From positions 19,058 through 83,057 of the forward strand of contig MGVC01000075.1 in assembly GCA_001800285.1 (NCBI GenBank): 64,000 nt of DNA. The letters run 5' to 3'. Positions 20,035 to 46,247 of this stretch are shown one piece after another. Every line of letters starts with the position of its first letter. Within the stretch, counting starts at the first letter, position 1. The notes under the pieces are model-generated. The model made no database searches. It saw nothing but the letters and a program-made list of their open reading frames with translations, and was not told where the DNA came from. The stretch comes from Elusimicrobia bacterium RIFOXYA2_FULL_39_19 (GTDB taxonomy: Bacteria; Elusimicrobiota; Endomicrobiia; CG1-02-37-114; XYA2-FULL-39-19). The position numbers were made by a program, and so were the translations under genes.

Positions 20035-20140
20035 ATAGATGAACGCAATAATAAATGCAATAATTGCAAGTTTTGCAACTAAGCCAATGTATTTAGGAAT
20101 TAATAATTATAATTATTATATAAAGGGAGTGAAGACTAAA

Positions 20141-30356: not shown

Positions 30357-33300
30357 ATGGGAAATAAATTCAAAATAATATTTGTGTTTTTAGGACTGCA
30401 AATATTTCTGCTCACACCAGTGATATACAGTGCACCGGATGCGGTTACAAACCTAAGTGTAACAGCCGGGTTTAGCAGGGTTGCGCTTAGCTGGTCCGCG
30501 CCCTACGATACAGCCTCTACAGCGGCACCTGTTATATACGAAGTGAGAGTATCGTCATACCGCGTGCTTGTAAGTGCAGCCGATTGGAACGGTAATTCCA
30601 GCAGTTCCCAGCATCCTTACAGAATTGTACTGCCCACAACAACCAATGCCGGCTTTCTTGAAAGTATTGTTGTTACAGGCCTGACAAATGGAATGACTTA
30701 CTTTTTTGCAGTGCGCTCATCAACATATAATTTTTCAGATTATGCCGACTGGTCCGGAATGGACAGCACTTCGCCGGAACCTCAGGCTCAGCCGCAGAAT
30801 ACCGCGCCAACCGGTGCCGGAGGCTACCAGCCTTCAAACGGTGCTCACGTCAACGTTTCAACGCCTACTATTTACTGGAACAATGCTTCTCCCGGTAATC
30901 CGGATTCTACACAGGGTGATTACATAGCATCTTATACGGTATACATAAATACAGCAACTGATTTTTCCGGTGTATCCTGGGCCAGTATAATAAAGACCGG
31001 CATAATAACAAATTCCTGGAGCGTATCACCACCGTTAGCTGATAATACCACCTATTACTGGAAGGTTTTTGCCTATGATTCAGAGGGTGAAGAAGGCCAG
31101 CTTTTTGCACCCTACCAGAGGTTAATTGTAAATTCAACAAACTCTGCACCAACATCGGTAACCCTTATTTCACCTACCAATGGCGCCACCATAACATCTT
31201 TTCCCAGAAATTTTGACTGGAACGATGCAGTTGAGTCAGACCCGGGGGACAATATTTATTATGTGGTGCATCTTTCAAGTTCCCTGGATTTTACAACAGA
31301 AATTACCAGCAATACCGGAAAGGTTTCTACGGCAAATCTAACTTTAACGGTCATGGAAAACACCACTTATTACTGGTATGTAGTTACTCACGATACAAAT
31401 TCCCTGGGGCTTAATGTGACATATTCTCAAAGCACAACCTCAAGGACTGTCTGCATAAATTTATCGCCAAACGAAGACCCGTTGCCTTTTAACCTCACCT
31501 ATCCTATTAATGGTGAAGTTGTGTGTTTTTCCACTCCTACAATAAACTGGGATGATACCACAGACCCGGACCCGGGAGACTTTATAACATTTTATGAAAT
31601 ACATTTGTCTTCATACAGTGCAGAGCTTACCAGTGGTAGTGAATATTTTTCTTCAAACGTTTATGTTTCACAATATGTATCCGAACCGCTGGTGGAAAAT
31701 GCTTCGTATAATTGGCTTGTTGTAGCTCACTCCTTTACAGGAGGACTATTGTTTACAGATTCAACATCTTTTGTAGTAGATGCGGTAAATGTGCTGCCAA
31801 GCTCAGTTACATTTTTGAGCCCGAATAATATGATTTCCACAACGTCTGTGCGCCCTGTTTTTATTTGGACAGCTTCATCAGACCCTGACCCAGGCAGCAG
31901 TTTTACTTATAAAATATATTTATCAACAAATAATTTTGCCACGGCATTCACAAGCGCGGCTCTGGTAACACCGGGTTTTATTCCGGTATCGGATTTAACT
32001 GAAAATGCCCAGTATGCCTGGAAAGTTGATGTAATTGACAACCAGGGAGGGCTGGTTACTACAGCAACAAATTATTTTTGGGTAGATTCAAGCATGGAAA
32101 ATCCAAACACTTTTAATTTGAATTCTCCGGACGGAACTAACCAGAATATACTTAAAACTTATTTTGACTGGGATAATGCAACAGATCCCGATGTAGGCGA
32201 TTATGTAGCAAGTTATGAAATATGGTATTCCACAACATCCTTATTTACGGTTTATACTTCTTCGGCCGGTTTAACGGTATCAAGCTTTTCGACACAGAGT
32301 ACTTTGATAGGCAATGCAACTTATTACTGGAAAGTTAGAGCAGTCTCAGCTAACAGCGGATTTTTATGGTCAACTACGAAATATTTTTATACAACAACAA
32401 GTTTTCCGCTGGCTTATCCCGAGGATGCGTCAGTAAGGAATTTCCTTAAAACATATTTTGTCTGGAACCAGCTGGCAGACCCGGATCCGACAGACAGCAA
32501 TACCGTTACGTATGACTTGTTCTATACCACTGTTGCATCCTTTAATATTTACACCTCAACTACAGGTCTTAGCGTTTCCACTTATACCATAGAATCACCT
32601 CTAATAAACAGCGCTACATATTACTGGAAAGTTAGAGCTATAGTCGCTACCGGTGCTTTATGGTCAAGCACAACAGGATATTTTTATACTGTCAGCAGTT
32701 TTACTCTTTCTGCACCTACTGATGGATCAAATCAGAACTATTTGAAGGTTAATTTTGACTGGAATGACCTTCCTGACCCGGCCCCTGCTGACGGTATTTA
32801 CGTGACCTATGAAATACATTACTCTACTGACATTCTTTTCAGGGTTTATGATTCTGCTTCAGGGTTAACTTTTTCAAGCTATACTACAAGTTCTGCACTT
32901 ATAAATTCTGCAACTTATTATTGGAAAGTAATTGCCCAGTCAACAAGCGGTTATACAAACTCAGTAAATACCTTTAGGTTTATAACCGGTACGGGCTTTG
33001 ACCTTTTAACTCCAGCTAATGAATCAACAGCAATAAATTTAAGGCCGTCTTTTGACTGGTCAGACATGCCTGATCCGGATACAACAGATAATGTTTCAGT
33101 AAGCTATGAATTCCAATATTCGATTTTTCCTGATTTTTCAGTTTTAAATTCTTCAGCAGGTTTAACTTCGTCAAGTTTTACTTTAACAACAGCACTGTTA
33201 AATGATACTACCTATTTCTGGAGAGTAAGAGCAGTCTCTTCTTCCGGCAGCAGTTATTGCAACGAATCCTATTTCAAATTGTATGTTTTAAACCAGTATC

Positions 33301-34916
33301 CCGCGGCTTTTAGTTTATCTTCGCCGGCAGACTTTTCAGTGCTTACTTCAACAGCTCTCAGCTTCAGATGGCAGGGTACTTATGACCCGGAATCAGAAAT
33401 AATAAGTTACTACTACAGATATTCTTTAAGCACGGTTTATACCACAACCGGCAGTTTTACAGAACCGGTATTTAACATGGATCCTGCCTTATTAACAGAA
33501 AATGCCAAATATTTATGGTATGTGCAGGCAAAAGATCTGTGGCAGAACACAACCGTATCAAACAGTTCTTTTACGTTTTATGTGAATTTTCAAAGCGAAG
33601 CGCCGTCTGCTTTCAGTCTTATGGCGCCAATGGACCGGGCTTTTGTAAGCGTGGGAAATTTTGACTGGCAAAATGCCAGTGATCCGGACCCGTTAGATAC
33701 GGTGAGATATGAAATAAATTATTCAACAATGAATGATTTTTCATTTTATTATTCGTCTGCTGGTTTATCGTCATCAAATTATTCTTTAAGTACAAGCTTG
33801 ATAGGCCAATGTACTTATTATTGGAGGGTAAAGGCTTATGGAACACAGGATCCTTCAAGCCTGTATACACTATCAAGCGTATATACATTTTATACTCCTA
33901 CAACCCAGCCGGCAGCACCCGCTGAATTAAGAGGAGTAGTTTCAGATAGCGGCAGCAAGTGTACCGTTTCCTGGGAAGCTGTGTTTTATAATTCAGATGG
34001 CTCTGTTTGCAGTAATTTGCAGGAATATCGTCTGTATAAATCCAGAACCTTAAACGGCCTTAAAGAAAATCCTGAACTGGTTGCTACTTTGGATACGAGC
34101 GTAATTACCTACGCAGATACGACCTTAAGTAGTCTTGAATATTTTTACATGGTGCGTTCAGTAAATTCATTTAAAATTGAAAGTGCTTTCTCTGCGATCC
34201 TTTATATTAATCCTTCGGAAGCTGTGAGCTACAGGGTTTTCAGCGATTTAAGCGATGAGGTAAGTCTTAATATTCCGGGTGAAATATATGACGAATTGAA
34301 TTCAAATAATGACATCCATGTAGCTATTTCCAGGATAAATTCTTACGAGAACAGCACTGTTTTAAGAGCTTATGATATGAAAATAGATAAGAGCGGTGTC
34401 AGCCGTAAAACATTCAGCCAGCCTCTTTATATTCAATTCAGTTACAGGAATATTGACGTGGCTGACCCGTCAATGCTTGGAGTGGCTTATCATGACGGAG
34501 TTTCCTGGCAGTACCTGGCTTGTACCGTAGATACCTTGAATAAAGTTGTAAAAATAAAAACTTATCATTTAACAGAATTCAGATTCCAGCTGGTGGAAAG
34601 GTCAACTGAATTTGAATTGCTTAACTGGCCGTTAAAAGCAAAAGTTTTTACTCCCAATAATGATAATGTAAATGATGAATTGAAAATATATTATTCTAAT
34701 CCGCAAAATAAAAGTATTACGGGTAAAATTATGAATATAAACGGAATGTATATTGCAGATATGGCTAATAATACTAATGAAATGGCTGTCAGTTGGGACT
34801 GCAAAACACAAAATGGCTACACCGTAACTTCAGGTATATATATTTACCAGCTTACAATTTCGGGTCCGAATTCCGAAAACAAAATTATTAACGGTACTAT
34901 TGTTGTCGCAAAGTAA
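30357..34916 (+). CDS. Secreted FN3-array surface protein (1,519 aa) with C-terminal sorting-type domain (cargo 2)
   Basis: Signal peptide MGNKFKIIFVFLGLQIFLLTPVIYSA, then an N-terminal FN3 (VALSWSAPYD...MTYFFAVRS). About 10 tandem ~90-100-aa FN3-like units follow, with the signature 'P.F.W....DPDPGD...Y.I..S....F........L....Y.....L..N(A/T)TYYWKV.A'. There is a late FN3 (CTVSWEAV...YRLYKS...YFYMVRSVN). The CTD at ~34610-34913 is KVFTPNNDNVNDELKIYYSNP...SGIYIYQLTISGPNSENKIINGTIVVAK, where 'FTPN.D..ND' resembles the type-B gliding/T9SS CTD signature. Confidence 0.8.
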   Translation: MGNKFKIIFVFLGLQIFLLTPVIYSAPDAVTNLSVTAGFSRVALSWSAPYDTASTAAPVIYEVRVSSYRVLVSAADWNGNSSSSQHPYRIVLPTTTNAGFLESIVVTGLTNGMTYFFAVRSSTYNFSDYADWSGMDSTSPEPQAQPQNTAPTGAGGYQPSNGAHVNVSTPTIYWNNASPGNPDSTQGDYIASYTVYINTATDFSGVSWASIIKTGIITNSWSVSPPLADNTTYYWKVFAYDSEGEEGQLFAPYQRLIVNSTNSAPTSVTLISPTNGATITSFPRNFDWNDAVESDPGDNIYYVVHLSSSLDFTTEITSNTGKVSTANLTLTVMENTTYYWYVVTHDTNSLGLNVTYSQSTTSRTVCINLSPNEDPLPFNLTYPINGEVVCFSTPTINWDDTTDPDPGDFITFYEIHLSSYSAELTSGSEYFSSNVYVSQYVSEPLVENASYNWLVVAHSFTGGLLFTDSTSFVVDAVNVLPSSVTFLSPNNMISTTSVRPVFIWTASSDPDPGSSFTYKIYLSTNNFATAFTSAALVTPGFIPVSDLTENAQYAWKVDVIDNQGGLVTTATNYFWVDSSMENPNTFNLNSPDGTNQNILKTYFDWDNATDPDVGDYVASYEIWYSTTSLFTVYTSSAGLTVSSFSTQSTLIGNATYYWKVRAVSANSGFLWSTTKYFYTTTSFPLAYPEDASVRNFLKTYFVWNQLADPDPTDSNTVTYDLFYTTVASFNIYTSTTGLSVSTYTIESPLINSATYYWKVRAIVATGALWSSTTGYFYTVSSFTLSAPTDGSNQNYLKVNFDWNDLPDPAPADGIYVTYEIHYSTDILFRVYDSASGLTFSSYTTSSALINSATYYWKVIAQSTSGYTNSVNTFRFITGTGFDLLTPANESTAINLRPSFDWSDMPDPDTTDNVSVSYEFQYSIFPDFSVLNSSAGLTSSSFTLTTALLNDTTYFWRVRAVSSSGSSYCNESYFKLYVLNQYPAAFSLSSPADFSVLTSTALSFRWQGTYDPESEIISYYYRYSLSTVYTTTGSFTEPVFNMDPALLTENAKYLWYVQAKDLWQNTTVSNSSFTFYVNFQSEAPSAFSLMAPMDRAFVSVGNFDWQNASDPDPLDTVRYEINYSTMNDFSFYYSSAGLSSSNYSLSTSLIGQCTYYWRVKAYGTQDPSSLYTLSSVYTFYTPTTQPAAPAELRGVVSDSGSKCTVSWEAVFYNSDGSVCSNLQEYRLYKSRTLNGLKENPELVATLDTSVITYADTTLSSLEYFYMVRSVNSFKIESAFSAILYINPSEAVSYRVFSDLSDEVSLNIPGEIYDELNSNNDIHVAISRINSYENSTVLRAYDMKIDKSGVSRKTFSQPLYIQFSYRNIDVADPSMLGVAYHDGVSWQYLACTVDTLNKVVKIKTYHLTEFRFQLVERSTEFELLNWPLKAKVFTPNNDNVNDELKIYYSNPQNKSITGKIMNINGMYIADMANNTNEMAVSWDCKTQNGYTVTSGIYIYQLTISGPNSENKIINGTIVVAK

Positions 34917-34922
34917 AAAAAT

Positions 34923-37109
34923 ATGGATAAGCTTAACAAAATAAAATTTATGAATAAAATAAAAATTGCCGGATTTATTGCAGGTATTGCCTGTTTTTGC
35001 CTGAATCCTGTTATTAATGCTTCTTTTGAAGAAACGGGCACTGGCGCACAGCCGCTTGCTATGGCAGGCTGTTTTACGGCATATACCGGATCTGTGTATT
35101 CTCTTTACTATAATCCTGCAGGATTAGGTTTTATATACAATACTCAGCTGGTTGGTGAGTTTTCCAGCCTTTATCAGGGGCTTGATGATAAAAGTAGTTT
35201 AGGAAAAGGATGTTTTGCTTTTGCGGTGCCGATAACAAAAGATTATTTCGGGTTTGGATTTGCATATGACAGCCTGTCTTTGGCAGAAACCTATTCAGAA
35301 GATATAATAAGGTTTTCAGCTGGTTATAGAATTCTGGATCCTTTAAGTTTTGGTTTTGAACTGAAGCTTATGAGCCAGAAATATATGATAGTGGGAAACC
35401 AGTATTATGCCCAGGATACCCTTTTTACAAAAGGTGTTGGTGCAGGAACTATGGATATGGATTTCGGGTTAGCCTATATGCCGTTCGATTATCTTTCCGT
35501 AGGATTGAAGTTAGGAAACATTTTTCAATCCAGTACCTACCTGGATGAAGAAAACAAATCAAAACTTCCCGGATTGGTACGGTTCGGTGTGAAATACAGT
35601 GAATATAGCTCTAACATGTGCCTGGATTTAGTTAACGAAACTTACAAATTCGGCAGCAGCCTTGAAGGAACTGAATCAAAATCAAACATGTCCGCAAATA
35701 TAGGAATTGAAAAGTTTTTCCTGGAAAGAGCAGCCAACAATTTTTTCCTTGCATTCAGGGGAGGACTTGTATGGGGAATCAATAATCAGTCAAAAAGTGT
35801 TACTGCCGGTTTTGGCGTGAATATTGCGCCTATAGCCATAGATTATGCCTGGGTTTTTCCGATAAGCGGTATCGAAGATATTTCGGGGAGCCATCACTTC
35901 TCTTTTGTCTGTAAATTTGGTAAAATAAAGAGTAATTTAAAGAGGAAAACATCAAGGTTTGAACAAGATGATTTTGAAGAGCCTTTAGCTGCCCGGGAAA
36001 ATTCTTTGCAGAGAGGAAATATGCCTGAGTCTCCGTCAACTTCTTCAAAATATACTTTATCCGGGAAAACATATGTAAAAGGGGCTTACCCTGAAGGTAT
36101 GTTTAGTTCACAGGTACTCTACGGCCCGGTAGCGATGATTCTTGATTCTGAAAGTGGCACCTATAATGTTCCTGCTCCGGCAAGTACCGGCACCGTTCAG
36201 AATTTCTATGTTTATTCTTACCAGTACACCCCTCCTATTACAGCTCAAACCAATCCTTTTTTAAGGGAATATTTTGAAACTGCCAAAGATTCTTCTGTGC
36301 CGGTTTCACTGCCGGTTCAGGAGTATAGTGAAATTGTTTTTTCAACCCAGACAAAAAATGAAAAGGGCGCAGTTTTAGTATCCTCTGTTTCGCCTGCAGA
36401 ATATAACAACGAAAAATCCACAACTCAGGTAAAAGAAATACTCCTTCCGGGATTGCAGGAAAAAATACCGGGAGTTAATTTAGAAAATTCTTCAGAAAAC
36501 CTCCCGGATTCAAAGAAAAAACTGCAGGTTGAAACAGGAGGAGTTCTGCCTTCTGTCCCATTAGTTGTTCCTGTAACTGTGCCTGTTGTTCTTCCTTCGG
36601 GAGTAACATCTGTAGAAGTTCCGGCAACAACACAGAATTTACAGCAGAAAATAAAAGACAGCAGGGAAATAAAGGGTTCTTTGCAAAATCAAAGTGATAA
36701 TGTAAATCAGAAAATAAATGAATCTCAGGTTCAGCTGCTAAGTGTACCTGAAGACGAGATACCGGAAGAAATACGAAGAGAAGTTGAGCAATCTCAGCAG
36801 AATGGAGAATCTATGACAGATACTGCACCTGCTGTTATTGTTCCCGCTGCACCGGCCGGCGGGATTCCTGCGGCGTTATCAACAGAAAACGGGATAAAAC
36901 AAAAAGAAGAAACAGGGCAGGCAACCAAACCAAAAACATCACCAGGAAATTATATGAGATATCATAAAGTAAAGCCGGGAGATACATTGAAATCCCTTGC
37001 ACAGGATTACTACGGCAATAGCGATAGATGGATAGATATATACAAAATAAATGAAGACAAAATTGATAAGGGTTCCCTTAGACCGGGACAGACTATGATA
37101 ATTCCATGA
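34923..37109 (+). CDS. FadL/PorV-like outer-membrane barrel + long low-complexity linker + C-terminal LysM (paired with cargo 2)
   Basis: It starts 6 nt after the cargo stop. Signal peptide KIAGFIAGIACFCLNPVINA. Barrel signature GTGAQPLAMAGCFTAYTGSVYSLYYNPAGLGF, then ~330 aa of beta-strand-type sequence. A ~330-aa P/S/T/Q/V-rich linker follows. The terminal LysM is YHKVKPGDTLKSLAQDYYGNSDRWIDIYKINEDKIDKGSLRPGQTMIIP (~36958-37106). Confidence 0.75.
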   Translation: MDKLNKIKFMNKIKIAGFIAGIACFCLNPVINASFEETGTGAQPLAMAGCFTAYTGSVYSLYYNPAGLGFIYNTQLVGEFSSLYQGLDDKSSLGKGCFAFAVPITKDYFGFGFAYDSLSLAETYSEDIIRFSAGYRILDPLSFGFELKLMSQKYMIVGNQYYAQDTLFTKGVGAGTMDMDFGLAYMPFDYLSVGLKLGNIFQSSTYLDEENKSKLPGLVRFGVKYSEYSSNMCLDLVNETYKFGSSLEGTESKSNMSANIGIEKFFLERAANNFFLAFRGGLVWGINNQSKSVTAGFGVNIAPIAIDYAWVFPISGIEDISGSHHFSFVCKFGKIKSNLKRKTSRFEQDDFEEPLAARENSLQRGNMPESPSTSSKYTLSGKTYVKGAYPEGMFSSQVLYGPVAMILDSESGTYNVPAPASTGTVQNFYVYSYQYTPPITAQTNPFLREYFETAKDSSVPVSLPVQEYSEIVFSTQTKNEKGAVLVSSVSPAEYNNEKSTTQVKEILLPGLQEKIPGVNLENSSENLPDSKKKLQVETGGVLPSVPLVVPVTVPVVLPSGVTSVEVPATTQNLQQKIKDSREIKGSLQNQSDNVNQKINESQVQLLSVPEDEIPEEIRREVEQSQQNGESMTDTAPAVIVPAAPAGGIPAALSTENGIKQKEETGQATKPKTSPGNYMRYHKVKPGDTLKSLAQDYYGNSDRWIDIYKINEDKIDKGSLRPGQTMIIP

Positions 37110-37140: not shown

Positions 37141-38388
37141 ATGAGTGAATTTAATGAACTGGAAGAAGAACTTCAAAAAATTGAAAACGAATTCAGTACC
37201 GATGAAACGGACGAGATTTTACGCCACATAGTCAGCCCGTCTGCCGCTGATTACTGGAAAAAACGCCTGGATGATGAAAAGGTTCTCTGGACAAAAATGA
37301 CTGAGGACAAGGAAAAAGACAAAAAAATCACTGAAACCAGGTTGTCTAAGGCTAATTCAGAGATTGAAGCTTTAACAAAAAAAATTCATGAACTGGAATC
37401 TGTCCTTCAAAAGGAAGTTGCTCTTTTTCAGGATAAATTGAAATCCCAGGAAAGCGATTTTCATCTTGAACGCGAAAGGTCCTCTTATGGCCAGAAAATA
37501 AAGGAACTGGAAAAAGAAAACAACGTGCTGCACGAAGAATTGAGGCAGTTAAAAGAAAATGAGGCAGTAAAAATTGATGCCATAAAGAAAACTCATGACG
37601 AAGAAGTTCTTGAGCTGGCCGATTCACAAAATTCAATAATTGAGAGCATAGAAGCTATAGCCGGCGATATAAAAGAAATTGAAGGGATTATTCAGAAGCA
37701 GTCTGAAGAAATTGCCGGACAAAAAGATTCCGTGACAAAAACCTTAGGTGAAAAAAACCTTAAAGAAGCAGAGCTGGCAAAGCTGAAAGCAGAGTATGAA
37801 AACAAAGTTTCCGAATTAAACCTGAGAGAAACTGACTTAAAGGAGTATTTCAGGATAACAGTAAAATATTTTTCAGGAAAAATCAAACCCTCCTTGGGTA
37901 CCATTCTGGGCATAGCAAACTATTGCACCAGAAGGCTTAAGGCAAGTTTTATCGGGAAAAATGCAGTTTTAAAAAAACAGATAAATCTGCTGGAAGGTGT
38001 AGTTGCTGATGTTTCCGTGCAGCTTGATAAGCTTGTTTCTCTTTCCGGGCAGGAAGAGATGAGCCTGCAGGAAATATCCCCTGAAAAATTCATAGCAAGA
38101 ATAAGCGAAGATGTTGATGTGTCTATGTTCCCTGCGGGTTTGAAAATGAAAGCTGACCAGCTTAGAATAATAAGCGCCCTGAAAAAACACTGTGAAAATG
38201 CGTCTTATTTTGTGAAATACAACCAGGCAAACAAGGAAATTGAGTTTAAAATACTTACGCCTGATAAACTGGAAAACACCGAAGATTTGGTAAGGCTAAA
38301 ATACCTTATTTATTCTCATGGATGGAAAGCGGTGTTCGGTAAGACAGATAATAAAACATTCATTATGTTGTACATAAAGGTATATTAA
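37141..38388 (+). CDS. Coiled-coil protein with degenerate histidine-kinase-like C-terminal half (module 1)
   Basis: RBS GGGAGG upstream. N-terminal ~240 aa are coiled coil. The C-terminal ~170 aa are colinear with the HK-like paralog at 46248-47363 (dimerisation-helix-like ILGIANYCTRRLK...QINLLEGVVADVSVQLDKL, then an alpha/beta part). It lacks a His at the H-box position and lacks recognisable G1/G2 ATP-lid motifs. Confidence 0.6.
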   Translation: MSEFNELEEELQKIENEFSTDETDEILRHIVSPSAADYWKKRLDDEKVLWTKMTEDKEKDKKITETRLSKANSEIEALTKKIHELESVLQKEVALFQDKLKSQESDFHLERERSSYGQKIKELEKENNVLHEELRQLKENEAVKIDAIKKTHDEEVLELADSQNSIIESIEAIAGDIKEIEGIIQKQSEEIAGQKDSVTKTLGEKNLKEAELAKLKAEYENKVSELNLRETDLKEYFRITVKYFSGKIKPSLGTILGIANYCTRRLKASFIGKNAVLKKQINLLEGVVADVSVQLDKLVSLSGQEEMSLQEISPEKFIARISEDVDVSMFPAGLKMKADQLRIISALKKHCENASYFVKYNQANKEIEFKILTPDKLENTEDLVRLKYLIYSHGWKAVFGKTDNKTFIMLYIKVY

Positions 38389-38394
38389 GCAGTA

Positions 38395-39591
38395 ATGGAG
38401 GCAGTAAGCATGAACATGATGTTTTTACTTGACGATAAAAATTATTCAAAACATATTGAGGAAATAATTTCGGGCCTTGAAGACAGCCAGGTAAAGAAAT
38501 TCTTAAAGGCGCGCGATATGTTGAAGGATATGGTTTTATCAAAACCCCAGCTGATATTTATAAATTCAAAAAATGCAGCAACTGCAGAGGTCAGAAAAAT
38601 CATGGCTGACTTCTCATTTGTTCCCTTTATTTCTTACGGAGATTTTGGAAAAAATATAAAATCAAACAAAGCAAATATCCGCTATTTGCAGAATAACGGT
38701 TACAGCCTTTGCCTGCCTGCAGCCGACATAGTAAACAAAGAATCAGCCCAGGCACAGATAAAAAATTTATTATGGCAAAGCCTGGCCAAAAGTGAATTGT
38801 GGGAGAAACAGCTGGATATTTCCAAGGTAGAAAGAACCGGCAGGTTTTACCGCGCAGTTTTAACTGTTGTTATGACTCTTGCCATATTGTCAATTTCCGG
38901 CATTGCGACAAAAGACAGGTTCCCGCTTACCCGTTATGTTTCTCCTGTAATATTTACAATACCATACCTGAATATTTCCGGTATCTCTCTTTCAAAAAAC
39001 ACTTTATGGACTTCAGATTGGCAGACCCAAAACATATACAAGCATAAATTAAACAGCGAGTTAAGTATTGAACGCGTCTATTCCTTCCCGGGAATAAGGA
39101 TTTCAGGACTGGTGGTGGCAGATGGTTCTTTGTGGACCCTGGATTCATGGAATAAAGTCATAAGAAAACACAACCTGGATAAAAGACTTTCTGTAAGCGA
39201 TCAGATTGTAACTCCCGGCTCAAATCCTACCGGCATTGCCTATAACGGCAAATACATAATAACCATAGATAATGCGACGGATAAATTATATATTCACAAA
39301 ATTGACGAAAAACTTACTGTATTAAAAGAATATAAACTTCCCCAGTCAAACCCCATAGGACTACATGCTGATGAAAAATATATATGGATAGCTGATGCAG
39401 GGGCAAATAAAATATTCTGCTGTACCATAGATGATTTTGATTTGAAAGTTAAAAATGTATTCATTCCTCCGGATTATGAAGGATATAAATTTTCCAGCAT
39501 TTCCGGAGATGAGGATTACCTCTGGCTGGCATCAGAGAAGGAATCAAAAATATTCAAATATCCTAAAGAAATGCTGGAGCCGGTGGAGTAA
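38395..39591 (+). CDS. Bitopic membrane protein: cytoplasmic receiver-like (pseudo-receiver) domain - TM - periplasmic beta-propeller (module 1)
   Basis: The N-terminal ~125 aa follow a CheY-like beta/alpha layout (MMFLLDD...QLIFINSKN...VPFISYGD...GYSLCLP), but with N where the phospho-Asp is expected. One TM segment (FYRAVLTVVMTLAILSISGIA). About 5 blade-like repeats follow: G(I/L)...(D/N)G..LW..D.....I.KH (LWTSDWQTQNIYKHK, LWTLDSWNKVIRKHN, IITIDNATDKLYIHK, IWIADAGANKIFCCT, LWLASEKESKIFKYP). Confidence 0.6.
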   Translation: MEAVSMNMMFLLDDKNYSKHIEEIISGLEDSQVKKFLKARDMLKDMVLSKPQLIFINSKNAATAEVRKIMADFSFVPFISYGDFGKNIKSNKANIRYLQNNGYSLCLPAADIVNKESAQAQIKNLLWQSLAKSELWEKQLDISKVERTGRFYRAVLTVVMTLAILSISGIATKDRFPLTRYVSPVIFTIPYLNISGISLSKNTLWTSDWQTQNIYKHKLNSELSIERVYSFPGIRISGLVVADGSLWTLDSWNKVIRKHNLDKRLSVSDQIVTPGSNPTGIAYNGKYIITIDNATDKLYIHKIDEKLTVLKEYKLPQSNPIGLHADEKYIWIADAGANKIFCCTIDDFDLKVKNVFIPPDYEGYKFSSISGDEDYLWLASEKESKIFKYPKEMLEPVE

Positions 39592-39679: not shown

Positions 39680-42600
39680 ATGAATAAAATATTTAAGAAA
39701 CTATTTTGGATTATTATAATTGCCGCTTTTAGGGCAAGCGTTTTTGCTGATACGGCTGTGCCACCTGCGGCCATTTCAAACTTAACAGCACTGCCCCACG
39801 ATACTCAGGAGGGCGCTGTTACCTTAAAGTGGACTGCCCCGGGAGAAGATGATTTAACCGGCACCGTAGAAAATTATTCATTAAAATTTGCCACATACCA
39901 GATATTAAGCGTTCAATTTGATGGTACCCCAGACTATTTTCACGGATGGTCAGCTTTTGCTGCAGGTAACTCACAAGAAGAGCAGGTTGTAACCGGGCTT
40001 ACTCCAGGCGTTACATACTATTTTGCTGTAAAAGGTTGTGATTCTCTTAGCAATTATGGTATATGGAATTCAATCATTGATGTAGCAGAAGCAAATACGC
40101 TTAACAGTACATTTGCGCAAATACTCCCGCCGGGGCCTATTACAGACCTTTATGCGGACATTACCGGGTTTGATGAAGGCAAAGTAAATCTTTCCTGGTC
40201 AGCTCCCGGAGATGACGGTTACTTAAACACTTTGGGTTCAGGTTCAGATTTTTTAATTCAGAGTTCCACAAACCCTGACGAAGCCTGGGCCCCTCTAAGC
40301 GCCCAGCTGACAGTTTCCACATCTTCAATAATTCCCGGTAATAAACAATTAAAAACCATAGCAACCCTCATTCCCGGGACAACCTATTACTTCAGAGTTT
40401 GGACCAAAGATGAAAATCCGGACTGTTTTTCACCGCTGTCAAATCAGGCTACTGCCTGGATTCAGACAGACATATCACCGCCAACGGCCATAACCAGAAT
40501 TGATACCTTTGATAACGGGTTTAAACATGTTAAGCTGAGGTGGATTGCTCCCTGCGAAGACAATAACTCCGTACCCTACAATACCGGTATATCAACCATT
40601 TCCTACGAAATCAAATACGCTACATTTCAGATAACTTCCGAAGTGCTTTATAACAGTGCTACGGTATTTTTAGTTATAAGCAGTTCCATAACACAGCCGG
40701 GCAACTTTGAAACTTTTACCGTTACAGGTTTAACTAACGGGGTTACCTACTATTTTTCAATTAAATCTGCTGATGAAACCGGCGCCTGGTCAGTCATAAG
40801 TTCCAGTTCTCCAAAATCACTGGTTTTTAATTCTTTGCCTAACCCGGCATCTTTAGATATTACTAATCTTCAAAGATATATCAGCGTAAGCAGCCATACA
40901 ATCAGGTGGTCCGGTGCAGACGCAGGAGGAAACTTAGGAAACTATGATTCTTCATTTGGTGATTCCATATCGTCTTATACCGTATATTTTTCAACTTATT
41001 ACACCTCACAAACTACTATAGGAAGGAGCACCGTTACATTTAATGGAATTATAAACATATCTACGGTAACTTCCAGACTAAGTGAAAATGCAACTTACTG
41101 GATGGTGGTTTATACGTATGATACAGAAAGTGGTTGTGGTTTTAGTACCTTAAACAGTGCTTGGCACTGGCTGACGGTAAACACAGTTAATGACGCCCCT
41201 AATAATTTTAACCTGTATGCTTCCTCAGGCATCGCAAATTTTAAAGATTATTCCCCATATAATGAAAAATTAAGGTTTCGTTGGAATGCTACAACTGACC
41301 CGGACGGCCCGGCAGATTTCGTAGCAGAATACAGGTTGTACTATTCCATAAGCCAGAATTTTGAAACTAACATAACTACCGGTATAACGGGTATTACGGC
41401 TTCTTCGTATACCATTACCCATTCTTTACAGGACAATACCACGTATTATTGGTTTGTAGTAGCCAGAGATTCCGGCAATCCGTTTAATTATGCGGTAAAA
41501 TCCACCAGTTCATCTGTATGGAGCGTAATAGTAAACTGTGTAAATAGCGTACCGGGCAATTTTTTACTGCTTACACCGGCATCTTCAACAGTAGTTAATA
41601 ATACAAGAACGCCTCTTTTTACCTGGAATGCATCAATAGATCCGGATCCGGGCGACAGTATCTATGAATACAAATTGTTTTATTCTTCCTGGACACAGAA
41701 TTTCAGTTCAACCCAGACTTTAGCGGGCCAGTCTGAGCTGTCCTGTGGCGTGGAAACCTCTACCAGAACACCTGTTTTGGTAGAAAATGCAACTTACTAT
41801 TGGTGCGTGGCAGCTTATGATAATGCCCAAACCTTAAGCCAGCTGTATTCGGCTCCACCATACTTTATCCAAGAATCAACAAAAAGCATCACAAGATATT
41901 TTGTGATTAATTCAGAAAATGAACCACCAAATGCATTTTCTTTATACAGCCCCATAGGCAGTACAAATCCTGCGGTTACCTCAGAGATGGTTTTTGACTG
42001 GGCAGACACTATTGACCCGGACCCTTTTGACCAAGTGCATCACTATGCTTTATATTTTTCACAGGACCCGAATTTCAGCGTAGCGCTAACCACCTGGACG
42101 CCATTTCTTTACAACAGTTCTGTAACTGTAAATTATCCTTTCAGCCCCGGGGTTAATTATTATTGGAACGTGGGTGCTTATGATGCAGCGGGAAATTGCA
42201 GGGTTTCTGCTTCAACCGGAGTATTTATAATTGCACAGAATGCCCCACAAAGTTTTACAATCATTACTCCTACAGGCTCGGTGAGAAATTTGCTGCCGAG
42301 GTTTGACTGGAATAATGCAGTAGAAACAGACCCTTACGACGATATTTCCTATTATAGACTTTATTATTCAACCAGCCTTAATTTTGAATCAGGTATTACT
42401 ACCTGGACCGGAAATATTCCTGTCAGTTCCTATACTTTTACAGCTCTTAATACTTTAACTCTAAGAACCACCTACTATTGGAATGTCAGGGCCTATGATT
42501 CTACAGGTTTGTTCAGCGTTTCAAACACCACAGGAGTATTTTTTACTTCCAACAGAGCCCCCGGTGATTTTGACCTTATTTATGCAACTGGTAATTCTGT

Positions 42601-44773
42601 AATTACATCAAACAGGCCTGTTCTTACCTGGCAGCCAAGCGTGGATATTGACAACGAAATAATAGTTTATACTTTGAGTTATTCCACATTTTCAAATTTT
42701 TCTTCGTCAAATGTTTTTACAATTACTAATTTAAACTCTTATACAGTTGCTTCTAATTTATCTGAAAATACAACTTACTACTGGAAGGTGGTTTCAAGAG
42801 ATGTTTTTGAATCAAAGCATTCGCTTTCAACCGGGGTATTTATTGTAAATGCTGTTGCGGAACAACCCACAGCTTTTGAGCTGACCGCATCTTCGGGAAT
42901 ATTAAATATTTCAACTCCTACTTTTTCCTGGACCCAGAGTTATGAAAATGATCCCGGAGATTATATAGCTTATTACACGCTTTATTATTCAAGCAGCAAT
43001 TTTCTTGTGACGCAGGCAACAACAGGTCTGAAAACCGCATCTTTCATTCCTTCGCAGGCATTACAGGAAAATATAACTTATAAGTGGTTTGTAACAGCAA
43101 CAGATTCTAACGGCCTTACAACAGCTTCCAATAGTACCTGGACTATTACTATAAATGCTGTTGATGAATATCCGGATTCGTTCAATCTGGTGTCTTCTAC
43201 GGGCTGGGTATCTTCAAGAAGGCCGTCTTTTGTATGGAACCGGGCAGACAAAACAGAGTGGTGGGATACTACGGTTTATAAACTTGAGTGCGGAAATCTG
43301 GCAAACCAGCTGGATTTGATTACGCGTACAGGCATAACTATCACTACTTATACAATTGATGTGGATTTACAGGAAAATGCAACTTACTGGTGGAGAATTA
43401 TAGCTACAGATTCAGCAAACCATTCTACAACATCAAATCAGATATTCTATATTTTTGTCAGTTCAGTAAACGATGCCCCGGGTAATTTTGGACTTACCGA
43501 GCCCGCGGACGGTTCAGTAATTAATACCAGAACTCCTGTTTTTTTGTGGGAAAAACCGACAGACCCCGACGAACCCAAGGGTGACCGCATAGCTTATTAC
43601 AATATTTATTATGCCACTACCCCTGTTTTTACAACGCAGAATATTATTATCAATCTTACAACCAACACCTTTACCTTGCCGGAAGTTTCCAGATTGCTTC
43701 AAAATACAACTTTTTACTGGAAAGTAGCTGCCTATGATATGCAGGGAAGCAGTACTGTGTCTCCCTTTTATAGTTTTTTTGTCGCAAATTTAAAAATACT
43801 TAAAACTCCGGAGTATTTCACAAGCACTGTTCTTAATGAAGACGGCCTTAGTTTGGTCTTGGCCTGGCCGGCAATGACACAGTATACCGACGATAGCATT
43901 GCCGATGATCTGGCGGGATACAATGTCTATCGTTCAATTAATCCGTTAGAAGGTTATGTTTTATTTGCATTTACTAAAGATAATTATTATATGGATACAA
44001 CGGTTAATAACTCGGTTTATTATTACTTTATACGATCAGTCAGTGTGACGGGTATAGAAGGTTCTGATTCGCCTATAGTATCTTCAGAAGCACAGAATAA
44101 AACCATATCTACCACAGAAAATAAGGATGCTTATCTGGAACTTTCTAACAGTATGATGAATACAATGAAAAGCAGAAACACTCTGCCTACAATTACAAAA
44201 ACTAATAATATTTATGAAATTAAAGTTACAAGAACCGACACCGGAGAGACAATAGAAAATTATAAATTCACCGAAACTATAACACTGAATTTTGTCATTA
44301 CTGCTGACGCTTCTTCACGCAAGACAGTCCAAAGCTATAACAGTAAATATGCAATTTATTGGCATAACGGAATTGAATATATAAATATTGGCGGCGAAAC
44401 AGATGATGCAGGCACTAAGATCTATGTAAATGCCATTTATTCAGGAAAATATAAATTGATGAGTATTATAGATTCGGATTTTTCCTACAGTGTTGAGCCC
44501 AGAAAAATAATAACGCCGAACTCAAGGGGTTCAGCTGTAACAGAAACCTTTAAAATAAGGTACGTAAATAATACCGGAGAACAGGTCTCCGCAGAAATAT
44601 TTGATTTAACAGGAGCTTTTGTGGCAAGGATGCACCAGCATGATAATCAGGGTGAATATCTTGAATGGGACGGCAGGCAGGCAACCGGCGAATATTCAAA
44701 AAAAGGCGTATACTTATACCAAATAAAAGCCGGTTCAAGGCTTTATTCTGGAACTGTAATTATTGCAAGATAA
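39680..44773 (+). CDS. Secreted FN3-array surface protein (1,697 aa) with C-terminal sorting-type domain (cargo 3)
   Basis: Signal peptide MNKIFKKLFWIIIIAAFRASVFA. Three N-terminal FN3 domains (VTLKWTAPGEDD...VTYYFAVKGCD; VNLSWSAPGDDG...TTYYFRVWTKD; VKLRWIAPCEDN...VTYYFSIKSAD). About 9 units of the same 'F.W....DPDPGD..Y.L.YS....F...(A/T)TYYW.V.A.D' type as cargo 2. A late FN3 (YNVYRS...VYYYFIRSVS). The CTD at ~44490-44770 is IITPNSRGSAVTETFKIRYVNNTGEQVSAEIFDLTGAFVARM...YLEWDGRQATGEYSKKGVYLYQIKAGSRLYSGTVIIAR. Confidence 0.8.
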   Translation: MNKIFKKLFWIIIIAAFRASVFADTAVPPAAISNLTALPHDTQEGAVTLKWTAPGEDDLTGTVENYSLKFATYQILSVQFDGTPDYFHGWSAFAAGNSQEEQVVTGLTPGVTYYFAVKGCDSLSNYGIWNSIIDVAEANTLNSTFAQILPPGPITDLYADITGFDEGKVNLSWSAPGDDGYLNTLGSGSDFLIQSSTNPDEAWAPLSAQLTVSTSSIIPGNKQLKTIATLIPGTTYYFRVWTKDENPDCFSPLSNQATAWIQTDISPPTAITRIDTFDNGFKHVKLRWIAPCEDNNSVPYNTGISTISYEIKYATFQITSEVLYNSATVFLVISSSITQPGNFETFTVTGLTNGVTYYFSIKSADETGAWSVISSSSPKSLVFNSLPNPASLDITNLQRYISVSSHTIRWSGADAGGNLGNYDSSFGDSISSYTVYFSTYYTSQTTIGRSTVTFNGIINISTVTSRLSENATYWMVVYTYDTESGCGFSTLNSAWHWLTVNTVNDAPNNFNLYASSGIANFKDYSPYNEKLRFRWNATTDPDGPADFVAEYRLYYSISQNFETNITTGITGITASSYTITHSLQDNTTYYWFVVARDSGNPFNYAVKSTSSSVWSVIVNCVNSVPGNFLLLTPASSTVVNNTRTPLFTWNASIDPDPGDSIYEYKLFYSSWTQNFSSTQTLAGQSELSCGVETSTRTPVLVENATYYWCVAAYDNAQTLSQLYSAPPYFIQESTKSITRYFVINSENEPPNAFSLYSPIGSTNPAVTSEMVFDWADTIDPDPFDQVHHYALYFSQDPNFSVALTTWTPFLYNSSVTVNYPFSPGVNYYWNVGAYDAAGNCRVSASTGVFIIAQNAPQSFTIITPTGSVRNLLPRFDWNNAVETDPYDDISYYRLYYSTSLNFESGITTWTGNIPVSSYTFTALNTLTLRTTYYWNVRAYDSTGLFSVSNTTGVFFTSNRAPGDFDLIYATGNSVITSNRPVLTWQPSVDIDNEIIVYTLSYSTFSNFSSSNVFTITNLNSYTVASNLSENTTYYWKVVSRDVFESKHSLSTGVFIVNAVAEQPTAFELTASSGILNISTPTFSWTQSYENDPGDYIAYYTLYYSSSNFLVTQATTGLKTASFIPSQALQENITYKWFVTATDSNGLTTASNSTWTITINAVDEYPDSFNLVSSTGWVSSRRPSFVWNRADKTEWWDTTVYKLECGNLANQLDLITRTGITITTYTIDVDLQENATYWWRIIATDSANHSTTSNQIFYIFVSSVNDAPGNFGLTEPADGSVINTRTPVFLWEKPTDPDEPKGDRIAYYNIYYATTPVFTTQNIIINLTTNTFTLPEVSRLLQNTTFYWKVAAYDMQGSSTVSPFYSFFVANLKILKTPEYFTSTVLNEDGLSLVLAWPAMTQYTDDSIADDLAGYNVYRSINPLEGYVLFAFTKDNYYMDTTVNNSVYYYFIRSVSVTGIEGSDSPIVSSEAQNKTISTTENKDAYLELSNSMMNTMKSRNTLPTITKTNNIYEIKVTRTDTGETIENYKFTETITLNFVITADASSRKTVQSYNSKYAIYWHNGIEYINIGGETDDAGTKIYVNAIYSGKYKLMSIIDSDFSYSVEPRKIITPNSRGSAVTETFKIRYVNNTGEQVSAEIFDLTGAFVARMHQHDNQGEYLEWDGRQATGEYSKKGVYLYQIKAGSRLYSGTVIIAR

Positions 44774-44774
44774 T

Positions 44775-46247
44775 ATGAACAAAATTAAAGCCATAAAAAT
44801 TATTGCAGGATTAGAAAAACAAAAAGCCGTAAAAAAGCGGATAACCGCTGTTTCTATGATTTTTGTTATATACTGTCTGTTTACAGGAAACGTCACGGCT
44901 GATTTTAATTATACAGGCATTGGTGCCCGGCCTGTTGCTTTGGGTAATTGTTATACGGCATTTTCTGATGATGCTTTTGGGGTTTATTATAACCCCGGCG
45001 GTTTATGTTTTGCGCGCTACCCGGAAATAAGTACGCAGTTCGGCCAACTTTGGATGAATTTGACTGATAACTCAAATCTTACTGACGGTTATTTAGGCGG
45101 AGTTTATCCGGTGGAAAAAGCAGCTTATGGTTTTGCGGTCCAGAAATTTTCGCTTGACGGATATTATTCTGAAAACACAATGTCATTTGCCTATAGCAGA
45201 AAAATCAGCGATTCTCTGGGACTGGGTGTTACTTTCAGGCAGATGCAGCAGGCCTATACTATGGATGAATATACTTTGACGGATGAAGTATTCAATAACG
45301 GCAATACAGTATCAAAGGCTGCCTTTGGTATTGACCCCGGTTTACTGTGGGCCTTTTATCCGGACTATTTTTTCGGAATGTCCATAATAAATCTAAACCA
45401 GCCGGATTTTGGCCTGGTGGAAAAAGAAATGCTTCCCGTAACATTTAATTTTGGGTTAAGTTACAGGAGCAACTATCCTTTAGGAGACATAAGCCTGGGT
45501 TTAGGTCTCAGTCAGACGGATAAGGATTATAAAATCACTTCAGGCATAGAGAAATTATTAATGAAGGGGAAATTAGCCGCCAGGCTTGGCTACGGGTTCG
45601 GTTCCAGCCAGTATTCGGGAATTTCTGTGGGTATAGGTTTAAAAATTGTACAGGCAACGTTTGATTATTCATTAAATTTCCCTGTAAGCGGAATGAAGCA
45701 GACCGGAGGAACACAGCGCATAAGTTTGACTTACCGGTTTGCCAGGCTCTCTGAAGAAGAAATGGAAGGCCAGCAGAATTTCAAAGCTGAAAAAGCCCAG
45801 CTGATAAAGAAGTATGAAGGCCAGGTAAAAGAGCTTGAAAATAAAATATCGGAACTTGATGCAAAATTTGCAGAGTCCCAAAGAATGCCGGCAGCACAGC
45901 AGACCCCTCGGGATATAGAAAATAGCAGGAAGATTGAAAAACAGATTCTTGAAATGCAGGGAAAATTGAAAAATCAGAAAATACAGAAAGAGCAGGAGCT
46001 GCAGGCTCCGGTGCCTCAAAAAGTTATTTACGATGAGCCGCTGCAGGAAGTAATACCCAAAGTGCAGCCACAGACCCCTAAAGAACCTGCCGCAAAGACT
46101 CACACGGTAAAAGAAGGAGAATCCCTGCTTTCCATAGCACAGAAATATTATAATGATTCATCAAAATGGAAAATTATTTACGAAGCAAATAAGAGTAAAA
46201 TTGAAAGAGGCCAGGTTTTACCGGGCCAGGTACTTAAAATCCCATAA
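44775..46247 (+). CDS. FadL/PorV-like outer-membrane barrel + coiled/linker segment + C-terminal LysM (paired with cargo 3)
   Basis: ATG at 44775 lies 1 nt after the cargo-3 stop; the track's TTG at 44763 overlaps it. Signal-like ITAVSMIFVIYCLFTGNVTA. Barrel signature GIGARPVALGNCYTAFSDDAFGVYYNPGGLCF, then ~290 aa of beta sequence. A K/E/Q-rich linker follows. Terminal LysM: HTVKEGESLLSIAQKYYNDSSKWKIIYEANKSKIERGQVLPGQVLKIP. Confidence 0.75.
   Translation: MNKIKAIKIIAGLEKQKAVKKRITAVSMIFVIYCLFTGNVTADFNYTGIGARPVALGNCYTAFSDDAFGVYYNPGGLCFARYPEISTQFGQLWMNLTDNSNLTDGYLGGVYPVEKAAYGFAVQKFSLDGYYSENTMSFAYSRKISDSLGLGVTFRQMQQAYTMDEYTLTDEVFNNGNTVSKAAFGIDPGLLWAFYPDYFFGMSIINLNQPDFGLVEKEMLPVTFNFGLSYRSNYPLGDISLGLGLSQTDKDYKITSGIEKLLMKGKLAARLGYGFGSSQYSGISVGIGLKIVQATFDYSLNFPVSGMKQTGGTQRISLTYRFARLSEEEMEGQQNFKAEKAQLIKKYEGQVKELENKISELDAKFAESQRMPAAQQTPRDIENSRKIEKQILEMQGKLKNQKIQKEQELQAPVPQKVIYDEPLQEVIPKVQPQTPKEPAAKTHTVKEGESLLSIAQKYYNDSSKWKIIYEANKSKIERGQVLPGQVLKIP

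Follow-up and report, generated by a model that had tools for sequence, protein, structure and literature searches.

Outer-membrane barrels with C-terminal LysM tails in an Elusimicrobiota genome, putative wall anchors for type-IX-like cargo proteins

Why would an outer-membrane beta-barrel of the FadL/PorV type end in a LysM domain, carried on a long linker? The question is raised by a 64,000-nucleotide stretch of contig MGVC01000075.1 (assembly GCA_001800285.1, Elusimicrobia bacterium RIFOXYA2_FULL_39_19), the whole of which is called the window here. Two of its open reading frames (ORFs), P0001 and P0002, join such a barrel to a C-terminal LysM. According to the reading that we favor, with a probability of roughly 0.6, both proteins belong to a type-IX-like surface-protein system as PorP/SprF/PorV-like barrels with a shuttle or anchor function, and tie a cargo protein to the cell wall by means of LysM. 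The domain architecture, the modelled fold, the pairing with cargo genes and the conservation of the fusion are what the analysis shows. The parts of the two proteins, with lengths in amino acids (aa) and model confidence as predicted local distance difference test scores (pLDDT), are as follows.

34923-37109, + strand: P0001, whole ORF, 728 aa, second gene of module 1
34923..35024, + strand: P0001 N-terminus with signal peptide, read from the translation; the model has an N-terminal helix, then pLDDT <50 at residues 23-38, before the barrel
35025..35924, + strand: P0001 barrel, PorV/PorP/FadL-like, residues ~35-334, 14 strands (AlphaFold2)
35925..36962, + strand: P0001 linker, residues 335-680, 346 aa, P/S/T/V/Q-rich, predicted to be disordered
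36963..37106, + strand: P0001 C-terminal LysM, residues 681-728, PF01476
44763..45740, + strand: P0002 N-terminus, signal peptide and 14-strand barrel, residues 1-326
45741..46100, + strand: P0002 linker, residues 327-446, E/K/Q-rich
46101..46244, + strand: P0002 C-terminal LysM, residues 447-494, PF01476

Both barrel-linker-LysM ORFs, first proposed in a first-pass annotation of the window, are real (34923-37109, 728 aa; 44763/44775-46247, 494 aa). To judge from the sequence, translation of P0001 likely starts at the Met at codon 10 and its signal peptide is probably cleaved after ...VINA. For P0002, which ends at 46247, a start at TTG 44763, as given by the ORF caller, and a start at ATG 44775 are equally possible. 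The same annotation had placed a LysM at both C-termini, and profile searches agreed: PF01476 matched P0001 with 29.6 bits (residues 681-728) and P0002 with 33.1 bits (residues 447-494), against a gathering cut-off of 20.9. The domain ends exactly at the C-terminus in both proteins, and the models give it the beta-alpha-alpha-beta fold with a pLDDT of ~90 (P0001) and ~88 (P0002). The OmpA family model PF00691 matched neither P0001 nor P0002, and neither is a PorE member; a match to the inverse autotransporter barrel PF11924 was likewise not found.

The subtype of the domain could point to a quite different function. The solved sequence nearest to the P0002 LysM is Kbp/YgaU (7pvc, E 2.8e-6), followed by the LysM of a T. 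thermophilus cell-wall endopeptidase (4uz2), and Kbp/YgaU of E. coli is a cytoplasmic K+ sensor. The LysM might thus be a Kbp/YgaU-like ligand sensor and not a wall binder, which would make the whole protein a regulated channel; PRK11198 (the NCBIfam family 'peptidoglycan-binding protein LysM') was matched at 28-44 bits, under its cut-off of 134, and some database homologues are labelled 'nucleoid-associated protein YgaU'. We regard this as the least probable of the readings considered here. No BON domain was matched in P0001 or P0002, a signal peptide together with an outer-membrane barrel means that the LysM is not cytoplasmic, and the barrel is paired with a cargo as in PorP/SprF.

The N-terminal parts of both proteins are predicted to be FadL/PorV-type barrels, as the first-pass annotation had it. 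AlphaFold2, given input alignments of 16 and 15 homologues, placed 14 strands in each, within residues 88-325 of P0002 and 74-332 of P0001. The P0002 model has a mean pLDDT of 77, and block means in the P0001 barrel are mostly 76-94, with dips to 49-71 near residues 151-170, 201-210 and 241-250. In Foldseek searches against the PDB, PorV of the F. johnsoniae type IX secretion system (T9SS) translocon led both lists: 8gl6_F and 6h3i_F took ranks 1 and 2 for P0002 (E 1e-11 and 6e-11) and ranks 1 and 3 for P0001 (best match 8gl6_F, E 9.9e-11). Across both barrels, the PorV matches ranged from E 1e-11 to 6e-10 with a TM-score (target) of 0.61-0.65, and FadL, TodX and TbuX came after PorV in the lists.

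Sequence profiles treat the two barrels differently. P0002 matched PorP_SprF (PF11751) with 30.0 bits, above the cut-off of 22.3, and the PorV/PorQ model NF033709 with 66 bits, below the cut-off of 90. P0001 reached 45 bits with NF033709, again below 90, and its profile support is weak, because no Pfam barrel model matched even at E<=1. An orthologue of P0001 (478 aa) in genome G004, which belongs to another family of the same order, passes PF11751 with 34.4 bits.

If these are barrels of the PorV/PorP kind, what do they carry? Each barrel gene directly follows the gene of a large fn3/Ig repeat protein with a type-B-like sorting domain, in keeping with the earlier description of the barrels as cargo-bearing.

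30357..34916, + strand: cargo 1, 1519 aa, secreted, with Ig_Rha78A_N-like repeats and a type-B-like T9SS sorting domain at its end
39680..44773, + strand: cargo 2, 1697 aa, with fn3/Ig repeats and a type-B-like sorting domain at its end

The barrel genes adjoin the cargo ends (<=10 bp), with a gap of 6 bp before P0001 and an overlap in the case of P0002. The type B sorting domain CHU_C (PF13585, cut-off 27) was matched in cargo 1 at residues 1429-1509 with 30.0 bits; in cargo 2 it scored 26.6 bits by hmmscan and 33.4 bits in the genome scan, next to fn3 (76 bits) and Ig_Rha78A_N (78 bits). A model of the P0002 barrel (residues 47-330) in complex with the last 120 aa of cargo 2 reached an ipSAE of 0.92, while the best of 3 controls reached 0.00; contact agreement between runs was >=95% and the partner pLDDT >=77. 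Of 157 solved complexes, 116 attained the mark applied to this score, as did 2 of 215 mismatched pairs; the calibration is rough because it was used here with our own alignments. On this model, the sorting domain of the cargo would be bound by the barrel. The modelled contacts on P0002 lie in the loops between strands 1-2, 3-4, 5-6, 7-8, 9-10, 11-12 and 13-14, and outside these loops only residues 47, 49 and 51 of the mature N-terminus are in contact.

The same model bears on the side of the membrane at which the tail ends. With an even number of strands (14), both termini are on the same face of the barrel; the cargo-contacting loops form the opposite face, and the tail exits on the other side. 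Given that the cargo is a secreted fn3/Ig repeat protein, the contact face should be at the cell surface and the tail in the periplasm. In alignment A1, an invariant aromatic residue (F326) ends the last strand, after which the tail begins. In OmpA-type proteins the last barrel strand is likewise followed by a periplasmic domain. According to the model, then, the C-terminus of P0001 and P0002 is best placed in the periplasm, and the topology check proposed at first pass came out on that side.

An extracellular tail would turn the argument around. The long P/S/T-rich linker of P0001 resembles extracellular stalks, and a LysM displayed outside might bind environmental polymers of N-acetylglucosamine (GlcNAc), such as chitin or the peptidoglycan of other cells, so that the barrel itself would be an adhesin. 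LysM domains do bind several GlcNAc-containing glycans according to PMC5595812. We nevertheless consider such an arrangement highly improbable, in view of the 14 strands that put both termini on one side, the modelled cargo contacts on the opposite face (save residues 47, 49 and 51) and the way in which the tail follows F326 of the last strand in the fashion of OmpA-type proteins. Further, related barrels of the same genome carry OmpA and TPR domains at this very position, and both are periplasmic modules.

These sister barrels were found by scanning the genome (3.09 Mb, 97.8% complete). The PorV/PorQ model matched at 48 places, 32 of them above the cut-off, corresponding to 44 distinct ORFs of >=250 aa, and the CHU_C type B sorting domain matched at 51 places (24 above the cut-off). 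A CHU_C match lay upstream on the same strand within 500 bp for 18 of the 44 barrel ORFs and within 3 kb for 25. Seventeen of the 44 continue for >=90 residues after the barrel, and Pfam recognized TPR in 7 of these extensions, an OmpA-family domain in 2, LysM in 2 (P0001 and P0002) and nothing in 6. The OmpA-fused barrels (PF00691) are C8:84630-86777 (75 bits, L009) and C20:59802-61289 (45 bits, L013). In the whole genome there are 5 LysM places and 9 OmpA places, and two of each lie on PorV-family barrels, a marked association. Within this genome, nothing argues more strongly for a periplasmic position with a role in wall binding than the presence of OmpA at the same place in sister barrels. 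As for the organism itself, four penicillin-binding-protein-type ORFs and LptF/LptG indicate that it has peptidoglycan and an outer membrane with lipopolysaccharide.

Two details of these genes may be recorded. In C8:84630-86777, a FlgD_ig/CHU_C-like domain sits between barrel and OmpA. The other three LysM genes of the genome (L019-L021), as read from their ORFs, have a signal-peptide-like start (L019 and L020) or a hydrophobic N-terminus (L021).

According to the favored reading, the proteins would work as follows. Each barrel would be produced along with the large fn3/Ig protein of the preceding gene, and its extracellular loops would hold the C-terminal sorting domain of this cargo, keeping it on the cell surface. 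Past the last strand the chain would return to the periplasm as a long linker, helical and ~120 aa long in P0002, disordered and 346 aa long in P0001, and the terminal LysM would bind the glycan strands of peptidoglycan non-covalently. The cargo-barrel complex would in this way be tied to the sacculus, with the cargo fixed and load-bearing, neither mobile nor released. In effect, the wall anchor of PorP-PorE would be realized in one polypeptide, with LysM replacing OmpA_C. Fixation of a cargo-bearing barrel to the sacculus was also what the first-pass annotation had guessed, and reasonably so; peptidoglycan binding by the tail and immobilization of the cargo are what we infer from the evidence above.

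LysM need not act as a lasting anchor. It could instead serve biogenesis, by holding the nascent barrel near the wall, by dimerization or by marking the export site, and a biogenesis role has been proposed for the LysM of inverse autotransporters. According to PMC5595812, YeeJ without its LysM is less surface-exposed, and the LysM region of intimin also dimerizes. The tandem pairs of LysM domains found in 9 of 89 LysM-bearing barrel representatives (see below) would suit avidity or cross-linking. On the other hand, the sister barrels carry OmpA domains, which are classical stable wall anchors, at the same position, and the PorE homologues of F. johnsoniae are linked to a static, finished complex in the account of PMC12618676. 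On balance we hold a biogenesis role to be unlikely.

Is the fusion a peculiarity of this genome? The best named homologue of P0002 is from an Elusimicrobia metagenome bin (59% identity), and other named relatives are Elusimicrobiota. We surveyed 40 genomes of the same class, for which counts are lower bounds (216 matches lie beyond those listed). Barrel-to-LysM matches occurred in at least 16 of the 40, namely 10 of 10 genomes of family f4, 3 of 3 of family f5 and one each of f1, f3 and f9; for family f6 (20 genomes) there was no such match among the matches listed. The fusion is therefore common in Elusimicrobiota, not rare.

The gene context was compared at nine loci, eight of which have a barrel-LysM gene (L030 has a barrel without LysM). 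A cargo fragment with a conserved C-terminal motif precedes the barrel gene in 8 of the 9, and the ninth contig (L027) is without an upstream ORF. CHU_C was detected at E<=1e-3 in 3 of the 8 cargo fragments scanned, and 10 aligned cargo C-terminal domains (cargo 2 and relatives, alignment A3) have a mean column identity of 49%. Downstream, a HATPase_c gene follows the barrel-LysM gene in all six loci whose downstream ORF was taken as such a gene, and a seventh downstream ORF scanned (L031) is without HATPase_c; the scan excludes L030 and L026, whose cut-off ORF lies ~870 bp away. HATPase_c-only proteins encoded after P0002-type genes (the window and L023-L029) measure ~357-392 aa. Genome G004 has both modules on one contig and a P0001 orthologue of 478 aa, from which we conclude that the tandem duplication is old and that the 346-aa linker arose by recent expansion.

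Beyond the class, an exhaustive search with a barrel-only profile gave 13,060 cluster representatives at E<=1e-3, of which 689 remained at E<=1e-30. Among the best 150, Pfam found LysM in 79, TPR_2 in 39 and OmpA in 3. A subfamily hidden Markov model raised the LysM count to 89 of the best 150, with LysM at the last residue in 64 of the 89 and two LysMs in 9. A survey of how often LysM is fused to this barrel family, as the first-pass annotation had suggested, thus gives 79 of the 150 nearest representatives and at least 16 of 40 relatives. As the profile was built from LysM-type barrels, the top 150 lean toward the LysM subfamily, and 79/150 is not the frequency across the PorV/PorP superfamily (13,060 representatives). 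The linkers of the 89 have a median length of 122 aa (quartiles 86 and 144, range 11-255), and a helical E/K-rich linker, like that of P0002, is typical of the barrel-LysM subfamily.

Some further leads came up beside these counts. The C-terminus of protein P0012, like those of the 9 representatives, has two tandem LysM domains. Protein atlas leads include barrel+LysM clusters in Elusimicrobiota and Candidatus Eiseniibacteriota, barrel+OmpA in Zixiibacteriota, and barrel+TPR in Elusimicrobiota and Fidelibacterota.

The linkers themselves differ much as first described, P/S/T/V/Q-rich in P0001 (P+S+T+V+Q = 44%) and helical and E/K/Q-rich in P0002 (120 aa, with E 15%, Q 14% and K 14%), whereas the label 'low-complexity' fits them only moderately, with Shannon entropies of 3.9 and 3.7 bits, respectively. 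In the model, the P0001 linker has a pLDDT <50 except for one helix at residues 570-605. A repeat array was considered and rejected, since the linker has no tandem repeat except a low-score 30-bp run at its start. It is also unconserved: no more than 42-44% of the query is spanned by homologues, and the orthologue in G004 has a length of just 478 aa. The P0002 linker is modelled as two long helices (residues 331-373 and 382-414) followed by ~28 disordered residues, and in helix 331-373 hydrophobic residues occupy 67% of the a/d heptad positions, the background being 33%. By a rough estimate from polymer scaling, a disordered chain of 346 residues would measure ~15-20 nm from end to end and >100 nm along its contour. 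With such a reach, the P0001 linker could span the periplasm or serve as a long leash.

The tails may also meet other periplasmic proteins, and the neighboring genes supply candidates. The window holds two paralogous four-gene modules inside a long run of same-strand genes. In both, the order is cargo, barrel-LysM, a coiled-coil or HATPase_c protein, and a propeller protein with a transmembrane (TM) segment; the arrangement is a tandem duplicate kept in relatives. The third and fourth genes are as follows.

37141..38388, + strand: coiled-coil protein, 415 aa, third gene of module 1
38395..39591, + strand: membrane-anchored propeller-like protein, fourth gene of module 1, with a single TM segment visible in the translation and a C-terminal beta-propeller-like domain (weak SGL match)
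46248..47363, + strand: HATPase_c (histidine-kinase-like ATPase) protein, 371 aa, third gene of module 2; HATPase_c 59.9 bits
47366..48460, + strand: protein with TPR (Pfam matches), one TM helix and a beta-propeller-like domain, fourth gene of module 2

Paralogy was evident for three of the four positions: the two cargos share 27% identity over ~1400 aa (E 1e-77), P0001 and P0002 share 29% (E 1e-35, with the LysM domains aligned too), and the two propeller proteins (38395-39591 and 47366-48460) share 30% (E 1e-32). Homology of the two third genes was also considered and found no support in BLASTP, in which the similarity was not significant (E 0.37). The 415-aa coiled-coil protein (37141..38388) matched no Pfam family, and a counterpart (32% identity, E 8e-59) follows the P0001 orthologue in G004. 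In the product of 47366-48460, GKRRK ahead of the TM segment suggests, by the positive-inside rule, that the propeller should be periplasmic.

The rest of the run may be described briefly. PorE, like the product of 47366-48460 with its N-terminal TPR, joins TPR and propeller domains. In the same cluster, the gene at 20039-22009 encodes a 656-aa protein with FliG_M (57 bits), FliG_C (93 bits) and a C-terminal TPR; it directly follows 18322-20034, a PorV/PorQ-family barrel (129 bits, above the cut-off) with a TPR tail. Upstream of this barrel-TPR gene, a giant ORF at 3-17756 (>5900 aa) continues beyond the window on its 5' side. The gene at 50424-51524, where the cluster ends downstream, encodes a fusion of a glycogen-binding CBM48/AMPK1_CBM domain with a GGDEF diguanylate cyclase (147 bits).

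With these neighbors, the tail could be conceived as a trans-envelope coupling arm that docks onto the periplasmic propeller or onto the coiled-coil or HATPase-like partners and links the cargo to the inner membrane, perhaps to a FliG-like rotor, with LysM only positioning the arm. In its favor, relatives share the four-gene module, which is present here as a tandem duplicate; the linker of P0002 is helical and shows a heptad pattern, helical E/K-rich linkers being typical of the subfamily; and FliG_M/FliG_C and GGDEF proteins are encoded in the same cluster. Further, PorE, the partner of PorP, has TPR and beta-propeller domains, for which binding to PorP has been suggested (PMC9143113). Yet linker sequence and length are poorly conserved across paralogues and orthologues, which suits a spacer better than a docking surface, and what is conserved is the barrel together with the LysM. 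We therefore give a coupling arm only a small chance.

The wall-anchor reading has to face several points that weigh against it. P0001 remains under every curated barrel cut-off. The closeness of the LysM to Kbp/YgaU means that its subtype is no proof of peptidoglycan binding. Since a similar complex, PorV with the C-terminal domain of a substrate, has been solved (8gl6), the pass of the cargo-barrel model may partly reflect memory. The 346-aa linker of P0001 is longer than those of all 89 LysM-bearing representatives (median 122, maximum 255) and far exceeds what is needed to reach the wall, and its length is unexplained by a simple anchor. As for the secretion system, GldM (TIGR03517) and GldL (TIGR03513) were unmatched in the genome, although no control genome matched either; GldK, GldN and PorU fell outside the T9SS profile searches. 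SprA (TIGR04189) had only a weak match, a 1757-aa ORF that scored 54.6 bits where the cut-off is 200.

The 1757-aa ORF (L032:13314-18587, C81) is without a Pfam match and is a candidate divergent translocon. Nearby are a 544-aa TraF_2-like barrel, a FecR-like protein and LptF/LptG.

How far does the proposed anchor differ from what is known? In P. gingivalis, as described in PMC9143113, PorE is a lipoprotein with a peptidoglycan-binding OmpA_C-like domain, and the PorP barrel binds both this lipoprotein and the type B protein PG1035; it was postulated there that non-mobile type B cargos are held at the wall by complexes resembling PorP-PorE, and that mobile cargos such as SprB are bound only to their PorP-like protein. 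According to PMC12618676, porP/sprF lies downstream of a type B substrate gene in F. johnsoniae, a type B substrate with a PorE homologue in its operon appears static, and dynamic substrates are without such a gene. P0001 and P0002 resemble this arrangement in having a 14-strand FadL-family barrel encoded directly after a type B cargo, a barrel that by our model binds the C-terminal domain of this cargo. They would also resemble it in a periplasmic-side tie of the barrel to peptidoglycan and in a static, wall-anchored surface protein. They differ in that PorE is a separate lipoprotein (TPR, beta-propeller, CRD, OmpA_C), whereas here LysM is present in cis behind a linker of 120-346 aa. The host differs as well: it is a member of the Elusimicrobiota, outside the FCB superphylum to which T9SS has been described as confined (PMC12421860, PMC11205867), with GldL/GldM unmatched (as in every control) and SprA weak.

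Both barrels have their best structural match in PorV itself (6h3i and 8gl6, chain F), whose model NF033709 was matched below the cut-off. The matched PDB chains (345 and 367 residues) are without a C-terminal tail, and PorV serves many type A cargos, whereas the barrels here are paired one-to-one with a neighboring cargo gene. OmpA-type proteins and the two OmpA-fused sister barrels share with P0001 and P0002 the order of barrel, linker and C-terminal domain for wall binding, which in P0001 and P0002 is putative. This domain is LysM here and OmpA_C there. LysM binds glycan strands and OmpA_C the peptide stem, and the OmpA barrel has 8 strands.

Barrels with LysM in cis are known from the inverse autotransporters (intimin, invasin and YeeJ; type Ve). 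In these, according to PMC5595812, a periplasmic LysM and an outer-membrane barrel carrying an Ig-repeat adhesin form one polypeptide, and the LysM of YeeJ binds peptidoglycan. There, LysM is N-terminal, the barrel is a 12-strand PF11924 barrel and the adhesin belongs to the same chain; here, LysM is C-terminal, the barrel is 14-stranded and PorV-like, and the adhesin is a separate protein, the barrel having no passenger. TsaP of the type IVa pilus also combines LysM and predicted disordered residues with a part gripping the outer-membrane channel PilQ, and its disordered residues may make the connection of the outer-membrane component to the wall elastic (bioRxiv 10.1101/2020.05.29.123786). 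It is, however, a separate periplasmic protein and not a barrel, and it acts in another machine with another cargo.

The statement of the first-pass annotation that FadL/PorV-type barrels are not normally tethered to the wall is not supported, in view of PorP-PorE, the static complex of F. johnsoniae and the OmpA-fused sisters; with inverse autotransporters and TsaP known as well, the premise was too strong. Barrel tethering to peptidoglycan as such is already known, via PorP-PorE and via static type B cargos with PorE homologues. What differs here is that the anchor is fused in cis, that it is LysM instead of OmpA_C, and that the host is outside the FCB superphylum. In the literature covered, at the level of titles and abstracts and with most subscription journals outside it, we found no account of LysM fused to PorP/PorV, nor of Elusimicrobia with type IX parts. 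Database annotation goes no further than 'LysM peptidoglycan-binding domain-containing protein', 'LysM repeat protein' or 'YgaU', so that the barrel and its role go unnoticed.

A wider picture can be drawn, although as a whole it is decidedly unlikely. LysM-tailed barrels might be the fixed wall stations of an undescribed Elusimicrobiota envelope machine, built from dozens of cassettes of type-IX ancestry and driven without a GldLM motor by a FliF/FliG-like rotor. In such a machine the tail would be a force-bearing or mechanosensing tether from the adhesin to the inner-membrane propeller and the HATPase-like protein, and its output would go to the GGDEF enzyme; mobile adhesins would sit on barrels that have no wall-binding tail, and static ones on LysM/OmpA barrels.

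Dozens of type-IX-like cassettes in a non-FCB phylum, without a match to GldL/GldM, are more surprising than the fusion itself. Such cassettes appear to be abundant in Elusimicrobiota, beyond FCB and apparently without the known motor, which raises the question of how their cargos are exported and energized. For the barrels, the fusion may be read as a natural 'Rosetta stone' for PorP-PorE: what are two proteins there are repeatedly joined here. That the joining was repeated with three interchangeable periplasmic modules (LysM, OmpA and TPR) gives independent support to the idea of two sorts of type B cargo, one meant to be fixed to the wall and one meant to move. It would also allow the static ones among the ~44 cargo/barrel cassettes of genomes of this kind to be predicted by a simple rule from sequence.

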